From a virus (lineage: Duplodnaviria > Heunggongvirae > Uroviricota > Caudoviricetes): a DNA stretch of 64,000 nucleotides. The translations under genes were made by a program, and so were the position numbers. Below are positions 20,039 to 35,019 of the stretch, piece by piece. Every line of letters starts with the position of its first letter. The first letter of the stretch is position 1. The notes under the pieces are model-generated. The model did not search any database, was not told where the DNA came from, and was given only the letters and a program-made list of their open reading frames with translations. Location of the stretch: the IMG/VR virus record IMGVR_UViG_3300024270_000011. One strand, written 5' to 3'.

Positions 20039-20425
20039 TTAGGAACGAGGGGCAGACAGTACCACCTTAAACTTTCGCCCATTGCAGTGGAAAAGCATTT
20101 CCCTCTCGGCGTTCGTAACCTCAATTCCCTCAATGCTTTCCAATCCCTCAAGGGCTTGCTTGATTTCGTCAATCAGCATTGCCTTGTCGTTGTCGGCTTT
20201 GCGTTCTCTCTTGGTTGTGGTCTTGGTTGTGGTGGTGGTCTTTGTTCCAATGGCTCTTGCCTTTTTGCTTGCCTTTTCTTGCTCGGCACTCAACTCAAAG
20301 AGTTTTGCTCCCTTGTCGATTGCTTCATCATCAGCGACCAACTGTTCGGCTTCCTCTCGGCTGATACCTAACAGACCCATGTGCTTGGCAATCAGTTTTT
20401 CTCTCTCGGATGCTGTCATAGGCAA
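20039..20425 (-). CDS. Hypothetical protein, paralog of 15430..15807
   Basis: Same position downstream of a wHTH copy. Confidence 0.8.
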   Translation of the reverse strand: MPMTASEREKLIAKHMGLLGISREEAEQLVADDEAIDKGAKLFELSAEQEKASKKARAIGTKTTTTTKTTTKRERKADNDKAMLIDEIKQALEGLESIEGIEVTNAEREMLFHCNGRKFKVVLSAPRS

Positions 20426-20507
20426 TCCCCCTTTCTGTAATTACATTATACCACACATCAAAGGGGTTGTCAAGGGGAAATTTGCATTTCCCCTTGACTT
20501 TTTTCCC

Positions 20508-20867
20508 TTAGTCAGCGAGGGAGAAATAAGCCTTACGCTTTTCCTCAGTTCGCACAACCACGCCATCAGTGACGAGCTGACGAACAAGAGCAGACACACG
20601 CTGGTTGCTCAGTTCGGCACAGGCAGGAATGGTCTTCATCAGGTCAGTGATGGTGTAGGACTTACCCTGCTCCATACCTGCGACAATGTCGCCCTTAATG
20701 CCCTCATTAGCCACCTGCACAGCGGTAGGCTTCTTCTCGGCACTGTTCTTCTTTGCGAGCAGTTCGAGTTCGTGGTCAATGAACTCAACCTCAGCCTCAG
20801 TCAGAGGGTAGGAAGCCTTAATCTGCTCGAACATCTCACGCTTAGTCATCTTCTTAGTGTTTGCCAT
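20508..20867 (-). CDS. 119-aa winged-helix protein, copy 3
   Basis: MANTKKMTKREMFEQIK start identical to copy 1. Confidence 0.85.
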   Translation of the reverse strand: MANTKKMTKREMFEQIKASYPLTEAEVEFIDHELELLAKKNSAEKKPTAVQVANEGIKGDIVAGMEQGKSYTITDLMKTIPACAELSNQRVSALVRQLVTDGVVVRTEEKRKAYFSLAD

Positions 20868-21220
20868 AGTATCAATCTCCAATCTCGTGGTAGGTCACGA
20901 CCCAAGTTTTTATTCTGTAAGAGGTGTCCCTCTTTACATTCTTATTATAGCACATTGGGAGTTGTTTGTCAAGAGGTTTTTTCAACTTTTTTTTTATTTT
21001 TTTTGTTGACCTCTCAGTAGGTTTTCCCTTACCTTGTATAACTATTATAGCATACTCTTTAGGATTTGTCAATACCTTTTTCAAAACTTTTTTAGAAATT
21101 TTTTGGTAATGGCTTTTTCCTTTTTTCTATAATAATTATAACATAATTTTTTTATTTTGTCAATAGGTTTTTTCAAAATCTTTTTGATGGGATTTTGTTC
21201 TCTCCCTTACTGACAATAAT

Positions 21221-21372
21221 AGTATACCACATCAGCCACCAAAATACAAGTGGCAAATTGCACAAAATTACAGGAAAATCTTTGTGCATTTTGCCTATTG
21301 ACAAATTGCTCGAAAAATGTTATAATGGAAGGTTAGGCCAAAACACCGGTCCGCGCGCACGTGGACCGGCCG
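21221..21372. repeat. Back-to-back promoter cassette, copy 5 (both promoters intact)
   Basis: Plus TTGACA 21298, TATAAT 21321; hairpin CCGGTCC/GGACCGG. Confidence 0.9.
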
Positions 21373-21424
21373 ATGCATTTTGGATTTTGAAATGGAAAAA
21401 GCGAGGGTTTCCCCTCGCTCTTCC

Positions 21425-21577
21425 TTATCGCGTTCTCTGCTTCGTTGTCAGCGAATAGGCAACCCCATTCTCAAAAATGACTTCGTCCTTTGTGATGGAC
21501 GCAACCACCATACCTTCGGGGTTGCTCATGTTTGCGCGAATCTCATTCAGTGCATTTGCTACTTCTCGAATACTCAT
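21425..21577 (-). CDS. 50-aa hypothetical protein
   Basis: MSIREVANALNEIRANMS...; own promoter and AGGAG RBS. Confidence 0.65.
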   Translation of the reverse strand: MSIREVANALNEIRANMSNPEGMVVASITKDEVIFENGVAYSLTTKQRTR

Positions 21578-21651
21578 AGTATCATTCTCCTTTTCTTTTG
21601 GTTTGTACTTGTATTATAGCATAGGTTTGGGGGTTTGTCAACCCCCATTTT

Positions 21652-21897
21652 TTACTTTTTTGCGCTTACGCTCTTGGGACTGTCATTGGTCAAGGGCATC
21701 TGCGGAGTGGGAGCTTGTGCTTTGGTGATGATTGCATCAACCTGCTCATAGAGTTTGTAAGCCTTGCTCGCCTTGCGATAGACTTTCTTCAACTCGGAGT
21801 AGGTAAGAGCATTGAACTGCTCGTCACTCATTGTGACCCCAACCTTTGCCAACTTGTTGCGGATAGATTTCAAACTCATTTCGGAAAACATTTTCAT
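21652..21897 (-). CDS. Basic hypothetical protein
   Basis: 81 aa, own promoter and RBS. Confidence 0.7.
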   Translation of the reverse strand: MKMFSEMSLKSIRNKLAKVGVTMSDEQFNALTYSELKKVYRKASKAYKLYEQVDAIITKAQAPTPQMPLTNDSPKSVSAKK

Positions 21898-21955
21898 AGT
21901 AACAACCTCTTTTCTTTATTTTCTATAATTATTATACCACATTTTTATTTAATTG

Positions 21956-22117
21956 TCAATAGTCTTTTTCAATTTTCTTGAACTTTTTTCTATTGTACGA
22001 GCCTTTGCCCTTTTTGTTCTCGACTACCGACCCACGCTTGCGAAAGTGCAAATACTGTTGCAGTTCTTCGCCCTCTTTCTTAAAAATGCGATTGTCAATG
22101 GTTTTCTTCTTTTTCAT
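21956..22117 (-). CDS. arfA: ArfA-like alternative ribosome-rescue factor (53 aa)
   Basis: Hand translation MKKKKTIDNRIFKKEGEELQQYLHFRKRGSVVENKKGKGSYNRKKFKKIEKDY carries the ArfA signature FRxR..NKKGKGSYxRK; own promoter (22161/22138) and GAGGTG RBS. Confidence 0.75.
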   Translation of the reverse strand: MKKKKTIDNRIFKKEGEELQQYLHFRKRGSVVENKKGKGSYNRKKFKKIEKDY

Positions 22118-22171
22118 TTATCTCACCTCTTGGTATTATTATAGCATACCTTTGGGGGTTTGTCAACCCCC

Positions 22172-22660
22172 TTAGGCAACTTTTTTCTTTCTGCCACGCT
22201 TAGGCACATAGTTTTTGTAGTCCTTGCCACACTTCTGCAAATTGTGGAGAGTGTCGAAAGTGACAATCTGTGCGCCGTTGAATTTGATTTGATACTCAAT
22301 GCCGTTCACATTGACATCACCACCAACCCAAAAGCCGTCATTATCCCAATCTCTTGCGACCTGACCGAAGTATCTCTGTACCCACATTTCAAAGTTTCTG
22401 CCGTTGTTGCCGTTGGTTACTTCGTAGTCGATTTCGATTGCGCCCTTGCGAATGAGCTGTTCCATGTGCTGATTAGTCAGTCGAAGCTGAAGCTTTTCCT
22501 TGCCACCCTTTTTGCTTGCTTCTTTTTCTACTCGAATGAAGCGAGGCATGATTTCATCAACGATTGCCATGTAGTTCTTCTTCTTGTAAGTGAAACCGAG
22601 GATGTAACCCTGTGCGCCACTAAACTTTCTGTAGTATCTGATTGCGTTTCCCTTAGTCAT
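22172..22660 (-). CDS. Putative PD-(D/E)xK-fold protein
   Basis: 162 aa from ATG 22660; NGRNFE...GGDV...YQIK pattern. Confidence 0.5.
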   Translation of the reverse strand: MTKGNAIRYYRKFSGAQGYILGFTYKKKNYMAIVDEIMPRFIRVEKEASKKGGKEKLQLRLTNQHMEQLIRKGAIEIDYEVTNGNNGRNFEMWVQRYFGQVARDWDNDGFWVGGDVNVNGIEYQIKFNGAQIVTFDTLHNLQKCGKDYKNYVPKRGRKKKVA

Positions 22661-22749
22661 TGTTCCTGTCTCCTTTTCTGTTCCGTTCTTTGTATCTTTA
22701 TTATAGCACCGCATTGACCGTTTGTCAAGCACTTTTTTTATTTTTTTTG

Positions 22750-22840
22750 AAAAAGATGAGGGGCTTTTAGGGGCGTCCCCCAAGGGGTTTGAACCCTTTC
22801 TGCTTGAGCGGCTCAGCATTAAACCTCACCCCTCATCTGT
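22750..22840 (-). ncRNA. tRNA-like small RNA with a T-arm
   Basis: AGATGAGGGG/CCCCTCATCT 10-bp terminal stem, TGCTGAG-CCG-CTCAAGCA arm, AAGGG-TTCAAAC-CCCTT T-arm, GGGG-ACG-CCCC arm, 3' T-tract; begins about 6 nt after a -10 box. Confidence 0.65.
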
Positions 22841-22846
22841 AAGTAC

Positions 22847-22998
22847 AGTATAACACACTCCCCAATAGAAGTCAATAGTCAAAATGCACAAATTTCAGGA
22901 ATTTGACCTCTCGCAACTTTGTGCAAATTGCCTATTGACAAAATGCTGAGGAAGTGTTATAATGGAAATTCGTGCCGCCTGGGTCGTGGGCGGCGCGC
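22847..22998. repeat. Back-to-back promoter cassette, copy 6 (both promoters intact)
   Basis: Plus TTGACA 22935, TATAAT 22958; hairpin GCCGCC/GGCGGC. Confidence 0.9.
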
Positions 22999-23014
22999 CA
23001 AAAAGGCGAGAGCG

Positions 23015-23233
23015 TCAAATTGCTCTCGCCCTGATTTGGGTGGGCTTGATGTCTGCGTGACCCTTGTAGGCGTAATACTCAACCCATTCATAGGTGTTGC
23101 CACAGTGGTCACAGCCACCGACCACGCTCATTGCGATTGTGCCTGTGTCGAGGTCTTCAACATCGTAGTGTGAGATAGAAATGAGGGAGCCGCCGCAAGT
23201 GGGGCAAGTGGGTTCATTCGTGTTAATCATCAT
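23015..23233 (-). CDS. Small zinc-ribbon protein
   Basis: CPTCGG...GCDHCG. Confidence 0.7.
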   Translation of the reverse strand: MMINTNEPTCPTCGGSLISISHYDVEDLDTGTIAMSVVGGCDHCGNTYEWVEYYAYKGHADIKPTQIRARAI

Positions 23234-23306
23234 GGGGTATCAGTTCCTTTCCTCTTGGTGTAATTAAATTATAGCACAACGGTTTGAAAATGTCAAGGGG
23301 AAATTC

Positions 23307-23756
23307 TCACATTTCTGCGAGAATTTCCAAGATGTTCTGCACATCATAAGCCTTGCCAGTCCAGTTTGTTCTGTTGCGTTCTTCATCATCGAAAAGCACA
23401 TCGAGAGGAGTTTTGCAGAAGTTCTGCTTTGGTGTGCCGTAAGGTACAATGTGGATTTCGTTCCAGTTGACACTTGGCAGATGTTTCTTGAGCCAATCCA
23501 TTTTGACTTCGGTAACTGCTCTGTTGTATTCTTCTGTGCCACTCTTGCTCAGCCAAGAGATAACTGCGATGTTGTAGCCATTTCTCTGGAGAGTGTTAAG
23601 TCTGCGAGCGAGAGTTGCAAGTCTAAGCAGAGGCTTTGCGTTTGCGTAAGGGAATGTGTCGCCTGCGATGAGGTATTCGAGCCAGTTTTCTACTCCATAG
23701 AGGTCAGCGATTGTGCCGTCCATGTCAAAGTTGATTGTGATGTTCATAGTCTTCAT
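23307..23756 (-). CDS. HAD-family phosphatase (5'(3')-deoxyribonucleotidase-like)
   Basis: FDMDGTIAD motif I, K, and LFDD motif IV. Confidence 0.85.
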   Translation of the reverse strand: MKTMNITINFDMDGTIADLYGVENWLEYLIAGDTFPYANAKPLLRLATLARRLNTLQRNGYNIAVISWLSKSGTEEYNRAVTEVKMDWLKKHLPSVNWNEIHIVPYGTPKQNFCKTPLDVLFDDEERNRTNWTGKAYDVQNILEILAEM

Positions 23757-23867
23757 TGTGTTTACTTCCTTTCCTTTTTTGTATCTTAATTATAGCATGG
23801 ATTTTCGTGTTTGTCAATAGGTTTTTGAAAAGTTTTTTATTTTTTTTGACCGGGGAAAGTGGGGGAC

Positions 23868-24542
23868 TTAGTCCACCCACTTCGGAAAGCACTTGTTGTA
23901 CTCTCTGCCCTTTGCGTCCCACTGGTGAATGTTCTTGTTGAATTTCTTGTGCATTTTCAGACAAGCCACAAAGATTTCCATTTCGATGAGTGCGTCAGCC
24001 AGTGCAGTGTGTTCTTCGATGTAGTCAGCATTTCCAGTGATGAAGCCATAGACAGTCTGTGCAGTAGTAGAGCAAGACTTCTTGGAAGAGGACTGGAAGC
24101 CATTCTCGTGGCAGAAGTTCGCAAAGCCTTTCTTGTGGCAGATGGTCTGCAAAGCCATCAAGTAAATGTCGATGAACTCAAACTCGTCGAGCAGTTCTCT
24201 GCAAATAGTCTTGGTAAAGTCGAAAGCAGAGTTGTAAGCCATTACATAGCGAACACCATAGAACTTGCAAAGGTTGCGAACGATGGAAAGTGCTTCGGCT
24301 TCGGTAGCCACCGCAGACATTTCGCCAGTCATCAGTCTTTCGCGATAGATAGGGAAGTTCTTCTTTGCGTAATCGTCCTGTGCGATTTCGTCATAGTGTT
24401 CCATTACAAGCAGAGAAGCGGTTGCGAAAATGTTGCCCTCTCTGTCGTGGATAGTGCAACCGAGGTTGTACATTCCAGTAGGATTAGAAGCTCCGCCAAC
24501 AGTTTCAGTATCAAGTGTGCAGTAAATAATTTTCTTGTTCAT
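23868..24542 (-). CDS. Second DEDDh 3'-5' exonuclease
   Basis: LDTET, AYNSAFD, HTALAD; paralog of 18204..18941. Confidence 0.9.
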   Translation of the reverse strand: MNKKIIYCTLDTETVGGASNPTGMYNLGCTIHDREGNIFATASLLVMEHYDEIAQDDYAKKNFPIYRERLMTGEMSAVATEAEALSIVRNLCKFYGVRYVMAYNSAFDFTKTICRELLDEFEFIDIYLMALQTICHKKGFANFCHENGFQSSSKKSCSTTAQTVYGFITGNADYIEEHTALADALIEMEIFVACLKMHKKFNKNIHQWDAKGREYNKCFPKWVD

Positions 24543-32050: not shown

Positions 32051-33280
32051 ATGGCAGATAACCGTACGTTCTACTGCGAAAAATGTAATAGAACGATGAG
32101 TGCAGAACAATTTTATGGTTCAAATAATTTAGAAAAATATCCAGAAGGAAAATTGAAACAATGCAAGAAATGTATTTCAATGCATGTTGACAATTTTAAC
32201 CCTGATACATATTTATGGATTCTGCAGGAATGCGATGTACCTTATGTTCAAGATGAATGGAATAAGCTACTTGCGTCCTACGGAAAAGACAAATCTAAAT
32301 TAACTGGCATGACAATTCTTGGTAGATACTTATCTAAGATGAAGTTAAAACAGTGGCGAGATTATCGTTGGGAACACACTGATTATCTACAAGAAGTCGC
32401 TAACAAAAAAATTGAAGAAACTATGAAGCGTCAAGGCTATGACGCAATACAAATTAATGAAGCTGTTACGAAGGCGACTTTTACAATCCCGGATGAGATT
32501 TTAAAAGAACCTGAGTACACTCCTTATACTGGACCGACTGGTTATTTTGAAGAAGATGATTACTTCGCACAGCAGTCCGGAGAGGATACTTCTTTTGATG
32601 ATGATTTAACAGAAGAAGATAGAACATACTTGCGATTAAAGTGGGGCAAAACCTATAAACCAGAAGAATGGATTAAGTTGGAACAGTTGTATGAAGAAAT
32701 GATGAGTTCTTACGATATTCAAACTGCGGGACATATTGATACATTGAAATTAGTTTGTAAAACATCTTTGAAAGCTAATCAGCTCTTGGATATTGGTGAT
32801 GTTGATGGTGCTCAGAAGATGATTAAAATGTATGACGGACTTATGAAGTCTGGTAAGTTTACTGCGGCTCAGAATAAAGCAGAATCTGGTGAGTATGTAG
32901 ACTCCATTTCCGAACTTGTGGCAATTTGCGAAAAGGATGGGTTCATCCCTCGTTATTATACAGACGGGCCACAGGATAAGGTTGATAGAACATTACAAGA
33001 TTTACAAAGTTACACTTATAATCTGGTAACTGAGGAAATGAACCTTGGTAACTTGATTGAAAGTGCTATTAAACAGATTGAAGAAGAAAAACAAAGAGAG
33101 GCCGATGGCGCATCTGAGGCAGCTGATGAGGAAGAACTCATGGAAGCCGCACTATTTGAGGATGGTGCTACTAAGGTTCTCACAGATAGTGATTTCGAAG
33201 AATTTAGAGAATTTGAAGAGGATGTCGAAGAATACGACACCGCTTACATTGAAAAACTCTTGAATGGAGAGGAAGACTAA
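32051..33280 (+). CDS. Probable terminase small subunit with N-terminal zinc finger
   Basis: CEKC...CKKC; stop overlaps the large terminase start; SPbeta-like position. Confidence 0.6.
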   Translation: MADNRTFYCEKCNRTMSAEQFYGSNNLEKYPEGKLKQCKKCISMHVDNFNPDTYLWILQECDVPYVQDEWNKLLASYGKDKSKLTGMTILGRYLSKMKLKQWRDYRWEHTDYLQEVANKKIEETMKRQGYDAIQINEAVTKATFTIPDEILKEPEYTPYTGPTGYFEEDDYFAQQSGEDTSFDDDLTEEDRTYLRLKWGKTYKPEEWIKLEQLYEEMMSSYDIQTAGHIDTLKLVCKTSLKANQLLDIGDVDGAQKMIKMYDGLMKSGKFTAAQNKAESGEYVDSISELVAICEKDGFIPRYYTDGPQDKVDRTLQDLQSYTYNLVTEEMNLGNLIESAIKQIEEEKQREADGASEAADEEELMEAALFEDGATKVLTDSDFEEFREFEEDVEEYDTAYIEKLLNGEED

Positions 33281-35019
33281 TGGCTCTTCAAGACCTATTA
33301 GACCTCTCTACCAAGAGAAAGAAAATTGGACTATCTGAAGAGCGTATCGAAGCTATTAAGCCTGCGGTGCGCCAATATATTGCCTATTGGCGCGAATATC
33401 CAGACATGTTCATTGATTTTCTCCAAGATGGCGGAGACCCTACAAAGGAAAGGAAATTAAAGTTTTTCTTCTATCAACGAGTATTTTTGCGTGCGGCTAT
33501 GCGTTACAAATATGTATACATGGTGTTCCCTCGTGCGTATTCAAAATCATTCTTATCTGTTATGGTACTGATGTGCCGTTGTATCTTATATCCACGTAGT
33601 AAATTATTCGTTACTTCTGGTGGTAAAGAGCAGGCTGCAGGTATCGTAAAAGAAAAAGTTACAGAAATTTGCACGCTGGTTCCGGCCTTTGACCGAGAAC
33701 TTGACCGCCGACCGGGTAAGACGCGTGAAGGTAAGGACTATGTTTGTTATGTATTCAAAAATGGCTCTTATTTCGATAATATTGCGGCGTCCGAGAAGTC
33801 GAGAGGTAAGCGTCGACATGGCGGTCTCGTAGAGGAGTGCGTTGGTGTTGACGGCGATATTCTTTCTCAGGTTATTATTCCTACCATGAACGTTTCTCGT
33901 TTGTGTATGGATGGCACAACTCAACCTGATGAGACTTTGAATAAGTCGCAGATTTATGTAACTACTGCCGGATTTAAAAACACATTTGCATATGATAAAT
34001 TGATACAGCTCTTGGTTTGGATGATTACTGAGCCTCACAAGGCAATGGTAATGGGCGGAACTTGGAGAATTCCTGTTTTAATGAAGTTGCTGGATAAAAA
34101 CTTCCTGCAAGACCTGAAAAAGGACGGAACCTTCAATGAAGCTTCTTTCGACCGTGAGTATGAATCAAAATGGACTGGTACTGTAGCTGACGCTTTCTTC
34201 AATGGAGAAATCTTTGATAGAAACCGCAACTTACAGAAACCTGAATTGGAACATTCTGGACGCTCAAGTGCGCAGGCTTTCTATGTATTGTCTGTTGACG
34301 TTGGTCGTAAGGGATGTGATTCTGTAGTATGTGTATTTAAAGTAACCCCACAATCAATGGGTGCGGCATACAAATCATTGGTAAATATTTATACATTCTC
34401 TGATGAACACTTTGAAGACCAAGCGATTCGTATCAAGAAACTGTTCTACAAGTATAAAGCTCGTAGAGTCGTAATCGACGCCAATGGTCTTGGTATTGGT
34501 TTGGTCGACTATATGATTAAATCTCAGATTGACCCAAATACAGGAGATACGTATCCTGACTTTGGTGTTTATAATGATGATGAGTTATACTATAAAAAGT
34601 ATAAGACCAACATTACCGAACAAGATGCTATGTATTTGATTAAAGCAAATGCGCCAATCAATACAGAAGCACATGCAAATGCGCAAGCTCAGTTATCTTC
34701 TGGTAAAGTTAAACTTCTTATTGACGAGCGTGTTGCTAAGACTAAGTTGCTTGGCACCAAGGTTGGTCAGAATATGAAACCTGAGGAAAGGGCAGAATAT
34801 TTAAAACCATTTACCCTAACTTCCATATTAAAAGAGGAAATGATGAACTTACGAGAAGAAAATGAAGGCGTAAACATTATTTTGAAACAAGCGAACAAAG
34901 GTATCCGCAAGGATAAATTCTCCGCTTTTGAATATGGATTATACTATATTAAACAAGTAGAAGAAAATAAGAAACGTAAAAAGAAATTCAATGCTAAAGA
35001 CTGGTGCTTTATGAATTAA
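33280..35019 (+). CDS. terL: Terminase large subunit
   Basis: FPRAYSKS Walker A variant, RGKRRHGGLVEE Walker B, LSVDVGR nuclease motif. Confidence 0.92.
   Translation: MALQDLLDLSTKRKKIGLSEERIEAIKPAVRQYIAYWREYPDMFIDFLQDGGDPTKERKLKFFFYQRVFLRAAMRYKYVYMVFPRAYSKSFLSVMVLMCRCILYPRSKLFVTSGGKEQAAGIVKEKVTEICTLVPAFDRELDRRPGKTREGKDYVCYVFKNGSYFDNIAASEKSRGKRRHGGLVEECVGVDGDILSQVIIPTMNVSRLCMDGTTQPDETLNKSQIYVTTAGFKNTFAYDKLIQLLVWMITEPHKAMVMGGTWRIPVLMKLLDKNFLQDLKKDGTFNEASFDREYESKWTGTVADAFFNGEIFDRNRNLQKPELEHSGRSSAQAFYVLSVDVGRKGCDSVVCVFKVTPQSMGAAYKSLVNIYTFSDEHFEDQAIRIKKLFYKYKARRVVIDANGLGIGLVDYMIKSQIDPNTGDTYPDFGVYNDDELYYKKYKTNITEQDAMYLIKANAPINTEAHANAQAQLSSGKVKLLIDERVAKTKLLGTKVGQNMKPEERAEYLKPFTLTSILKEEMMNLREENEGVNIILKQANKGIRKDKFSAFEYGLYYIKQVEENKKRKKKFNAKDWCFMN

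Follow-up and report, generated by a model that had tools for sequence, protein, structure and literature searches.

The closest known system to the gene described here is ArfA (YhdL) of Escherichia coli and other beta/gamma-proteobacteria (PF03889; PDB 5U4I, 5MDV, 5H5U, 5MGP, 7OJ0). In this small factor, residues 1-14 order the switch loop of RF2, residues 15-24 form a short helix at the decoding centre, F25 together with Q27-E30 binds the RF2 domain II/IV sheet, and the basic tail, with a KH motif common to BrfA, lies in the mRNA entry channel (PMC8012679). Exchange of ArfA A18 for threonine already blocks RF2 activation, ArfA and BrfA are each specific to the RF2 of their own species, and the active truncated form of ArfA is ~54-55 residues long while a 40-residue truncation is inactive (PMC8012679). 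In cells, arfA and brfA are translated from mRNAs that have no stop codon, and their products therefore build up only when tmRNA is saturated (PMC8012679). Surveys of ribosome rescue describe ArfA as a reserve called on only once tmRNA is overwhelmed, place it only in some beta-/gamma-proteobacteria, and report that Firmicutes depend on tmRNA and RqcH (PMC8874680; PMC11633108).

An ArfA-like rescue factor, already in the truncated form, had been predicted from sequence in the window, by which we mean the whole stretch of 64,000 nucleotides that was analyzed, itself a part of a 191,974-bp IMG/VR virus record (IMGVR_UViG_3300024270_000011) rated 98% complete. The 53-codon open reading frame on which the original prediction was built is present on the minus strand at 21956-22117, with its ATG at 22117-22115 and its TGA at 21958-21956, and we assign it as a coding sequence from the reading frame, its family, selection and similarity to ArfA. 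The residues that had been quoted for it, IDNRI and HFRKRGSVVENKKGKGSYNRKK, occur as written, and the stretch of E. coli ArfA that had been quoted for comparison is correct when set against the annotated arfA of strain MG1655 (L008:8432-8650:-). The encoded peptide is strongly basic, with 19 lysines and arginines among 53 residues and a pI of 10.2.

The gene has its own promoter at 22138-22166 on the minus strand, as had been predicted, consisting of a -35 box TTGACA at 22166-22161, a 17-nt spacer, a TG at 22146-22145 and a -10 box TATAAT at 22143-22138, which amounts to 12/12 matches to the sigma-70-type consensus with an extended -10. The predicted ribosome binding site was also found, a Shine-Dalgarno core GAGGTG read from the sequence at 22124-22129 (minus), 6 nt 5' of the ATG. 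A promoter matching the consensus likewise lies upstream of the gene in most close relatives, with a GAGG- or GGAGG-type ribosome binding site in the same place. The promoter of the next downstream gene, at 21931-21959 on the minus strand, is also a perfect match in the promoter scan, and its -35 box TTGACA (21959-21954) contains the TGA of the ArfA-like gene. In a near-identical relative of 61 residues (P0001), a Cys codon stands in place of this TGA and the reading frame runs 8 codons longer; a base change of that type at the stop would also weaken the -35 box of the next promoter.

Across the 3.5 kb around the ArfA-like gene the scan returned 16 promoter-like sites, compared with 4.4 expected, and window positions 20400-23900 hold 12 perfect TTGACA-17-TATAAT promoters with the TG extension, 10 on the minus strand and 2 on the plus strand. 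This interval is an early region in which nearly each small gene has its own host-type promoter; the two plus-strand perfect promoters (21298, 22935) are antisense. Upstream of the ArfA-like gene, the TAA of the preceding gene (22174-22172) runs directly into a G5/C5-based hairpin (22171-22154), the two together occupying 22154-22174 of the minus strand, as read from sequence and folding. The -35 box that serves the ArfA-like gene lies within the hairpin, which folds at -19.6 kcal/mol (z -3.2; 0/200 shuffles as stable), and this single short stretch may combine a stop, an RNA 3' hairpin and a promoter. A similar GGGGG-TTGACAAA-CCCCC unit is seen again at 21628-21647.

The ArfA-like reading frame is a real gene and not a chance frame. 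Its relatives number 533 at E<=0.01 when counted as proteins in 90%-identity clusters, and an exhaustive scan of 50%-identity representatives identified 171 clusters at E<=0.001. When a 31-codon core is compared, dN/dS for the window gene against its relatives is 0.014-0.11 with dS >1.8, the median dN/dS over 69 pairs is 0.165, and differences fall mainly in the third codon position (1841, 1392 and 4074 at positions 1, 2 and 3, respectively). Because dN/dS is low and synonymous sites are saturated, the protein has stayed nearly constant while its DNA diverged to saturation.

PF03889 (ArfA) is the sole Pfam match of the window protein (E 7.8e-5), spanning residues 25-45 against positions 23-41 of the 44 in the profile; NCBIfam returned no match for the protein, and PHROGs returned a single weak and functionally uninformative one. 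A PF03889 profile search had been put forward as a check on the original prediction, and it gave a divided answer: the window protein alone falls below the curated gathering cut-off, at 22.5 vs 25.5 bits, whereas 57 of 65 diverse relatives (alignment A1) match the profile at E<=0.01, the best at 5e-8, and some relatives bear a precomputed PF03889 match. When the single protein was compared with the PDB by phmmer, three ArfA chains came out on top at E ~0.2, and BLASTP against E. coli ArfA recovered 16/30 identities (E 2e-5). Using the family profile from A1 against the PDB, the best six matches are all ArfA, with E from 2e-5 to 9e-5. Moreover, hhalign comparison of the family with an ArfA alignment made of enterobacterial sequences only (A3) gives a probability of 94.8% and E 5.5e-8, with phage residues 24-51 aligned to ArfA 24-49 and one two-residue insertion in the strand region.

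The similarity is unevenly distributed along the peptide. With both alignments split at residue 25, the C-terminal halves align at P 1e-10, while the N-terminal halves show no profile similarity to ArfA (hhalign P 0.52 over 6 columns). The designation ArfA-like therefore holds for the C-terminal half, where the Pfam matches, the six PDB chains and hhalign agree, and not for the N-terminal half. At the family level the resemblance is significant and ArfA-specific, and is more than a lysine-rich coincidence; the strand-plus-tail module (residues ~24-51) can safely be called homologous to that of ArfA, and the RF2-activating head has either diverged beyond recognition or been replaced.

Within the C-terminal half, the tail motif KKGKGSYxRK occupies residues 35-44 and is near-invariant across the family, specifically at K35, K36, G37, K38, G39, S40, Y41 and R43. 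Ahead of the tail, F25-R26-K27-R28 of the phage protein matches ArfA F25-R26-Q27-R28 in the gapped alignment; the two-residue insertion in the strand region follows F-R-x-R, and an ungapped alignment shifts the register. The KH found at K44-H45 of E. coli ArfA is absent in the window protein, which has F46-K47, and is present at the equivalent spacing in 18/63 relatives, with the following RKxKH stretch matching ArfA position by position in many relatives. The N-terminal half carries a family-specific conserved helix, EELQxYLxF, that matches the tail in conservation (E17 88%, L19 95%, an aromatic at position 22 91%, L23 83%, F25 78%), and a glutamate falls at the position of ArfA A18 if the alignment is taken ungapped from F25. 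An AlphaFold2 model (mean pLDDT 78) has a helix at 17-27, an extended basic segment at 28-42 that holds NKKGKGSYxR, and a further helix at 43-52 forming the basic C-terminal end. A predicted complex of the peptide with residues 105-373 of RF2 from an Acutalibacteraceae MAG (L064:1039-2160:-) scored 0.00, with a partner pLDDT of ~35, and so speaks neither for nor against binding.

Variation among the relatives touches both the motif and its context. A large subgroup (L017, L020-L022, L024-L029, L031, L033, L039-L044) is without three of the KGKGS residues (VES-KKK-YNRQK/SGKKYNR) and keeps the rest, which indicates that the glycine-lysine motif is dispensable in some lineages. Peptides on three viral contigs (L057:2192-2356, L058:3980-4105, L056:3923-4069) have the same NKKGKGSYxRKK tail on other N-terminal halves, and one of them (INPIAKALMF, then IKKQVV) looks nearer to canonical ArfA. 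The NKKGKGSYxRKK tail acts as a module on different heads. Additionally, several longer proteins (P0263, 257 aa; P0135, 150 aa; P0195; P0197) have an ArfA-like segment fused at their start or end, and in P0263 a hydrophobic segment and a larger C-terminal domain follow. Genuine fusion is one possible source of these proteins, an artefact of gene calling the other.

The gene ends at a genuine in-frame stop, as had been anticipated, and its product is about as long as active ArfA. Once the two-residue insertion is allowed for, residue 53 falls at approximately ArfA residue 51, which is near the active 54-55 residues and well past the inactive 40. Between 21900 and 22120 no terminator-like site was found on the minus strand. 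The reading frame is free of internal hairpins and terminators, and its 3' end forms no stable hairpin, the segment 21925-21975 having a folding energy of -1.1 kcal/mol (z +0.68). A hidden non-stop design was considered and rejected; one fold pairs codons 29-32 with the stop region (10 bp, long-range, z -2.6), and this pairing requires a C-terminal sequence that the relatives do not conserve. In about 50 related loci read from DNA the frame always closes with a real stop, 41-55 residues after the likely start. The description of the gene as already truncated, constitutive and outside tmRNA control is consistent with what its anatomy suggests across the whole family.

The carrier had been described as a Firmicute-type phage, and its large terminase (33280-35019) agrees with this. 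The terminase has 146 matches among cultured phages, and by name the tallied organisms are without exception Bacillota or their phages; Enterococcus and Geobacillus phages come closest, at ~49-50% identity, followed by SPbeta-like Bacillus phages. From this grouping, the carrier, a large gut phage, is of Bacillota type. It encodes 37 tRNA genes, no tmRNA was found in it, and neither was a release factor of its own, so that any RF2 step would use the host factor. Similarly, four of five other carrier phages have 20-82 tRNA genes. The 8-kb neighbourhood had no megablast match among cultured phages, and tblastn with the peptide and relative P0186 against 50,697 cultured-phage records gave nothing meaningful.

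To place the family among genomes, contigs were scanned with a profile from alignment A2, and relatives were also located by exact-sequence look-up. The look-up placed them on contigs of 23-175 kb with arrays of small genes (the longest for one such protein being 197 kb, and none >200 kb), and relatives were also found on 20 contigs from IMG/VR, up to 402 kb in length. In species-representative genomes there were 26 matches, all on MAG contigs, and in 4/5 of the MAGs checked the ArfA-like gene shares one contig with a terminase 39-81% identical to that of the window phage; only one further match came from 400 genomes sampled across the Clostridia class. A host chromosomal origin was therefore ruled out, the contigs with such a terminase being phage DNA binned with bacteria, and the family is phage-borne and not a host gene. 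Its usual place is on phage contigs of 100-400 kb with many tRNA genes, and it is nearly absent from the bacterial genomes searched.

The neighbours of the ArfA-like gene are unrelated small reading frames, among which only an NT5C-like nucleotidase and a winged-helix-like protein have informative Pfam or PHROG matches, and gene order around the gene is not conserved with relatives. Uninformative neighbours and unconserved order give no indication of an operon partner. The NT5C-like 5'-deoxyribonucleotidase (149 residues; 23307-23756, minus strand; Pfam E 2.3e-6; phrog_2643 E 8e-11) is encoded a few genes away, and is near the ArfA-like gene in relatives too, in another order.

An alternative genetic code was examined as well and was ruled out for the window phage, where reading frames of >=100 codons cover 81% of the genome under table 11 and TAG ends 9/148 of them; its terminase is open under the standard code. 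The terminases of sister phages carry 2-11 in-frame TAG codons each (G001:C48:164637-166370, G003:C114:129204-130943, G004:C8:9636-11369, G005:C1:10863-13297), with 2 in-frame TAA codons in addition in the last of these. This suggests TAG recoding in the late genes of sister phages that carry the ArfA-like gene. ArfA acts with RF2, and RF2 does not read TAG; RF2-centred termination and the ArfA-like peptides may be linked in the TAG-recoded sister phages.

On balance, we lean toward the view that the peptide is a constitutive detector of empty-channel ribosomes that is free of tmRNA control and would recruit host RF2. Once the phage DNA enters the cell, the gene would be transcribed by host RNA polymerase from its perfect sigma-A-type promoter, and, its mRNA having a normal stop, the peptide would not be tagged and destroyed through tmRNA, unlike cellular ArfA and BrfA. 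The basic tail (NKKGKGSYxRK) would then bind only ribosomes with a vacant mRNA channel, stranded at the 3' ends of cut or truncated mRNAs, and the strand and N-terminal helix (EELQxYLxF) would recruit and activate host RF2, so that the chain is released and the ribosome rejoins the pool with no tagging by tmRNA. The phage would benefit by having ribosomes available while host or defence nucleases, or host shut-off by the phage, cut mRNAs, and this proposed benefit fits the 37 tRNA genes of the phage.

Docking at the ribosome is the better supported half of this reading, and we consider it likely. The claim of a rescue factor that recruits RF2 stands in so far as the F-R-x-R and strand region seem to be kept, F25 and the basic residues 26-28 apparently answering to ArfA F25-R26-x-R28; the RF2-activating N-terminal half is without ArfA similarity, so that RF2-dependent rescue, together with ribosome binding and the benefit to the phage, is what we infer. 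RF2 activation is weakened as a proposal by the absence of ArfA similarity in the N-terminal 24 residues and by the glutamate at the A18 position of the ungapped alignment. Moreover, since ArfA and BrfA are specific to the RF2 of their own species, function with a Bacillota RF2 cannot be assumed, and the score below the Pfam cut-off, the strand-region insertion and the missing KH would also count against this reading. That the N-terminal helix is conserved to the same degree as the tail, on the other hand, points to a further binding partner in addition to the channel.

The peptide could instead be a channel plug or competitor whose tail docks while its N-terminal half does not activate RF2, giving no release; it would then either compete with tmRNA-SmpB, sparing truncated and phage proteins from tagging and proteolysis, or damp initiation on free 30S/70S ribosomes as a form of host shut-off. 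The restriction of ArfA homology to the tail and strand half, with a differing N-terminal half, is what such a plug would look like, and the unrelated basic tails of SmpB, ArfB, Stm1 and SARS-CoV-2 Nsp1 occupy the channel, some of them with inhibitory effect (PMC8874680). Constitutive early expression from a very strong promoter would also suit a takeover factor. A plain plug, however, would not need the conserved acidic and hydrophobic helix at 17-25, a blocked channel would harm phage translation too, and F25 with basic residues at 26-28, the signature of the RF2-contacting part, seems to be kept; we regard this explanation as rather unlikely. The same conserved helix could serve an adaptor, in which the tail detects non-stop ribosomes and the helix recruits something other than RF2, such as RF1, a peptidyl-tRNA hydrolase, a Gram-positive RQC-type factor or a phage protein. 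An N-terminal half that is conserved yet unlike ArfA would be expected of such an adaptor; the small rescue factor ArfT can use RF1 as well (PMC8874680), and Bacillota depend on RqcH/RqcP and are without ArfA and ArfB (PMC11633108). The search for a partner candidate turned up none, the neighbours being unrelated small reading frames in an order that is not conserved, and the RF2-contact signature F-R-x-R seems to be kept; an adaptor to another factor is improbable in our view.

If the resemblance of KKGKGSY to ArfA were convergent, the protein would be an unrelated small basic nucleic-acid-binding peptide with no ribosome role, as its shortness and lysine-rich composition (19 K/R in 53, pI 10.2) and the weak single-sequence scores (PDB E 0.2; Pfam below cut-off) might suggest. 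The family-level statistics are significant and specific to ArfA, however, and the motif, its spacing to F-R-x-R and the RKxKH of many relatives match ArfA position by position, so that we give convergence very little credence. Returning to the favored reading of a tmRNA-independent detector that recruits host RF2, a broader version can be offered tentatively, though we would not expect it to hold in full: phages, and not beta/gamma-proteobacteria, would be a main reservoir of ArfA-type ribosome-docking peptides, and the clade in Bacillota-type phages would combine the ArfA tail with a different, equally conserved helix that recruits a Gram-positive RF2 or another factor.

What the observations describe is a large and tightly constrained group of peptides with an ArfA tail, carried by big phages that have many tRNA genes and Gram-positive-type hosts, with signals for constitutive early expression. 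If the peptide works as favored here, these phages override the host hierarchy of ribosome rescue; the peptide would then be a compact and new case of a virus taking over translation quality control, and might counter defences that cleave mRNA or produce messages lacking a stop. If the broader version is true, hosts that are without ArfA and ArfB receive from the phage a new, always-on rescue route, which would keep ribosomes free when host shut-off or defence RNases cut mRNAs, possibly including in the RF2-centred, TAG-recoded sister phages. The peptide is small enough to be made synthetically, and its distinct N-terminal helix is a natural experiment on RF2 activation by small proteins.

Among Gram-positive systems, the expected analogue is BrfA (YqkK) of Bacillus subtilis (PDB 6SZS), which is small, RF2-dependent and has a basic C-terminus in the mRNA channel. 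Unlike the phage gene, BrfA is made from a non-stop mRNA, and no sequence similarity between the two came to light, BrfA not being among the PDB matches, either of the family profile to E 1 or of the single protein to E 10. The C-terminal tails of SmpB and ArfB, as well as ArfT, are alike in being basic and in detecting the vacant mRNA entry channel, and ArfT resembles the phage gene additionally in that it is not controlled through a non-stop mRNA (PMC8874680). All three differ in being unrelated in sequence, and SmpB and ArfB have a tRNA-like partner or a GGQ hydrolase domain of their own.

Compared with ArfA itself, the phage product is likewise a small basic peptide whose NKKGKGSYxRK tail and, apparently, F-R-x-R and strand region stand where they do in ArfA, with a length near the active truncated form of ~54-55 residues, and a short helix predicted before the strand at about the place of ArfA residues 15-24. 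It differs from ArfA in that its N-terminal 24 residues are not detectably related, its strand has the two-residue insertion and the window member is without KH. The phage gene also has a genuine stop and is without an RNase III or terminator hairpin, so that its expression is not gated by tmRNA, and it is carried by phages of Bacillota-type hosts and not by proteobacterial chromosomes.

Phage ArfA is not new at the annotation level, which bears on the doubt in the original prediction as to whether phage homologs had been reported. IMG labels several members of the window family 'stalled ribosome alternative rescue factor ArfA', and cultured phages of other groups carry annotated or recognizable copies. 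Pseudoalteromonas phage J2-1 has an annotated ArfA of 51 residues (ATN93434.1). Salmonella phage Arash encodes an ArfA homologue with a real stop beside its tRNA genes (gp99c; L059:1417-1641) that is labelled 'ribosomal protein L2', and Pseudomonas phage pf16 has an unannotated 47-codon homologue with a real stop (L060:1495-1638), overlapped by an annotated 'hypothetical protein' on the opposite strand; both look like annotation errors. In the literature, g10 of Citromicrobium phage RXM has been called ArfA (PMC8953757), and gp30 of pelagiphage HTVC027P has a PF03889 domain and is reported to be highly expressed early in infection (PMC12753301). We found no paper testing any phage ArfA, and none on the clade of Bacillota-type phages or the N-terminal half peculiar to it.

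These phage ArfAs (J2-1, Arash, pf16, RXM, HTVC027P) resemble the window family in being borne by large phages, in having real stops and in their length of 47-51 residues from the likely start. They differ in having a canonical ArfA-like N-terminal half, in which for example an element of DPLF or SPLF type precedes the strand, and in their proteobacterial hosts, whereas the window family has its own N-terminal helix and belongs to Bacillota-type phages. What is new here is the form of the peptide, an ArfA tail behind a conserved head of its own, encoded with a real stop and signals for constitutive early expression and found across large tRNA-rich phages of hosts that lack ArfA.
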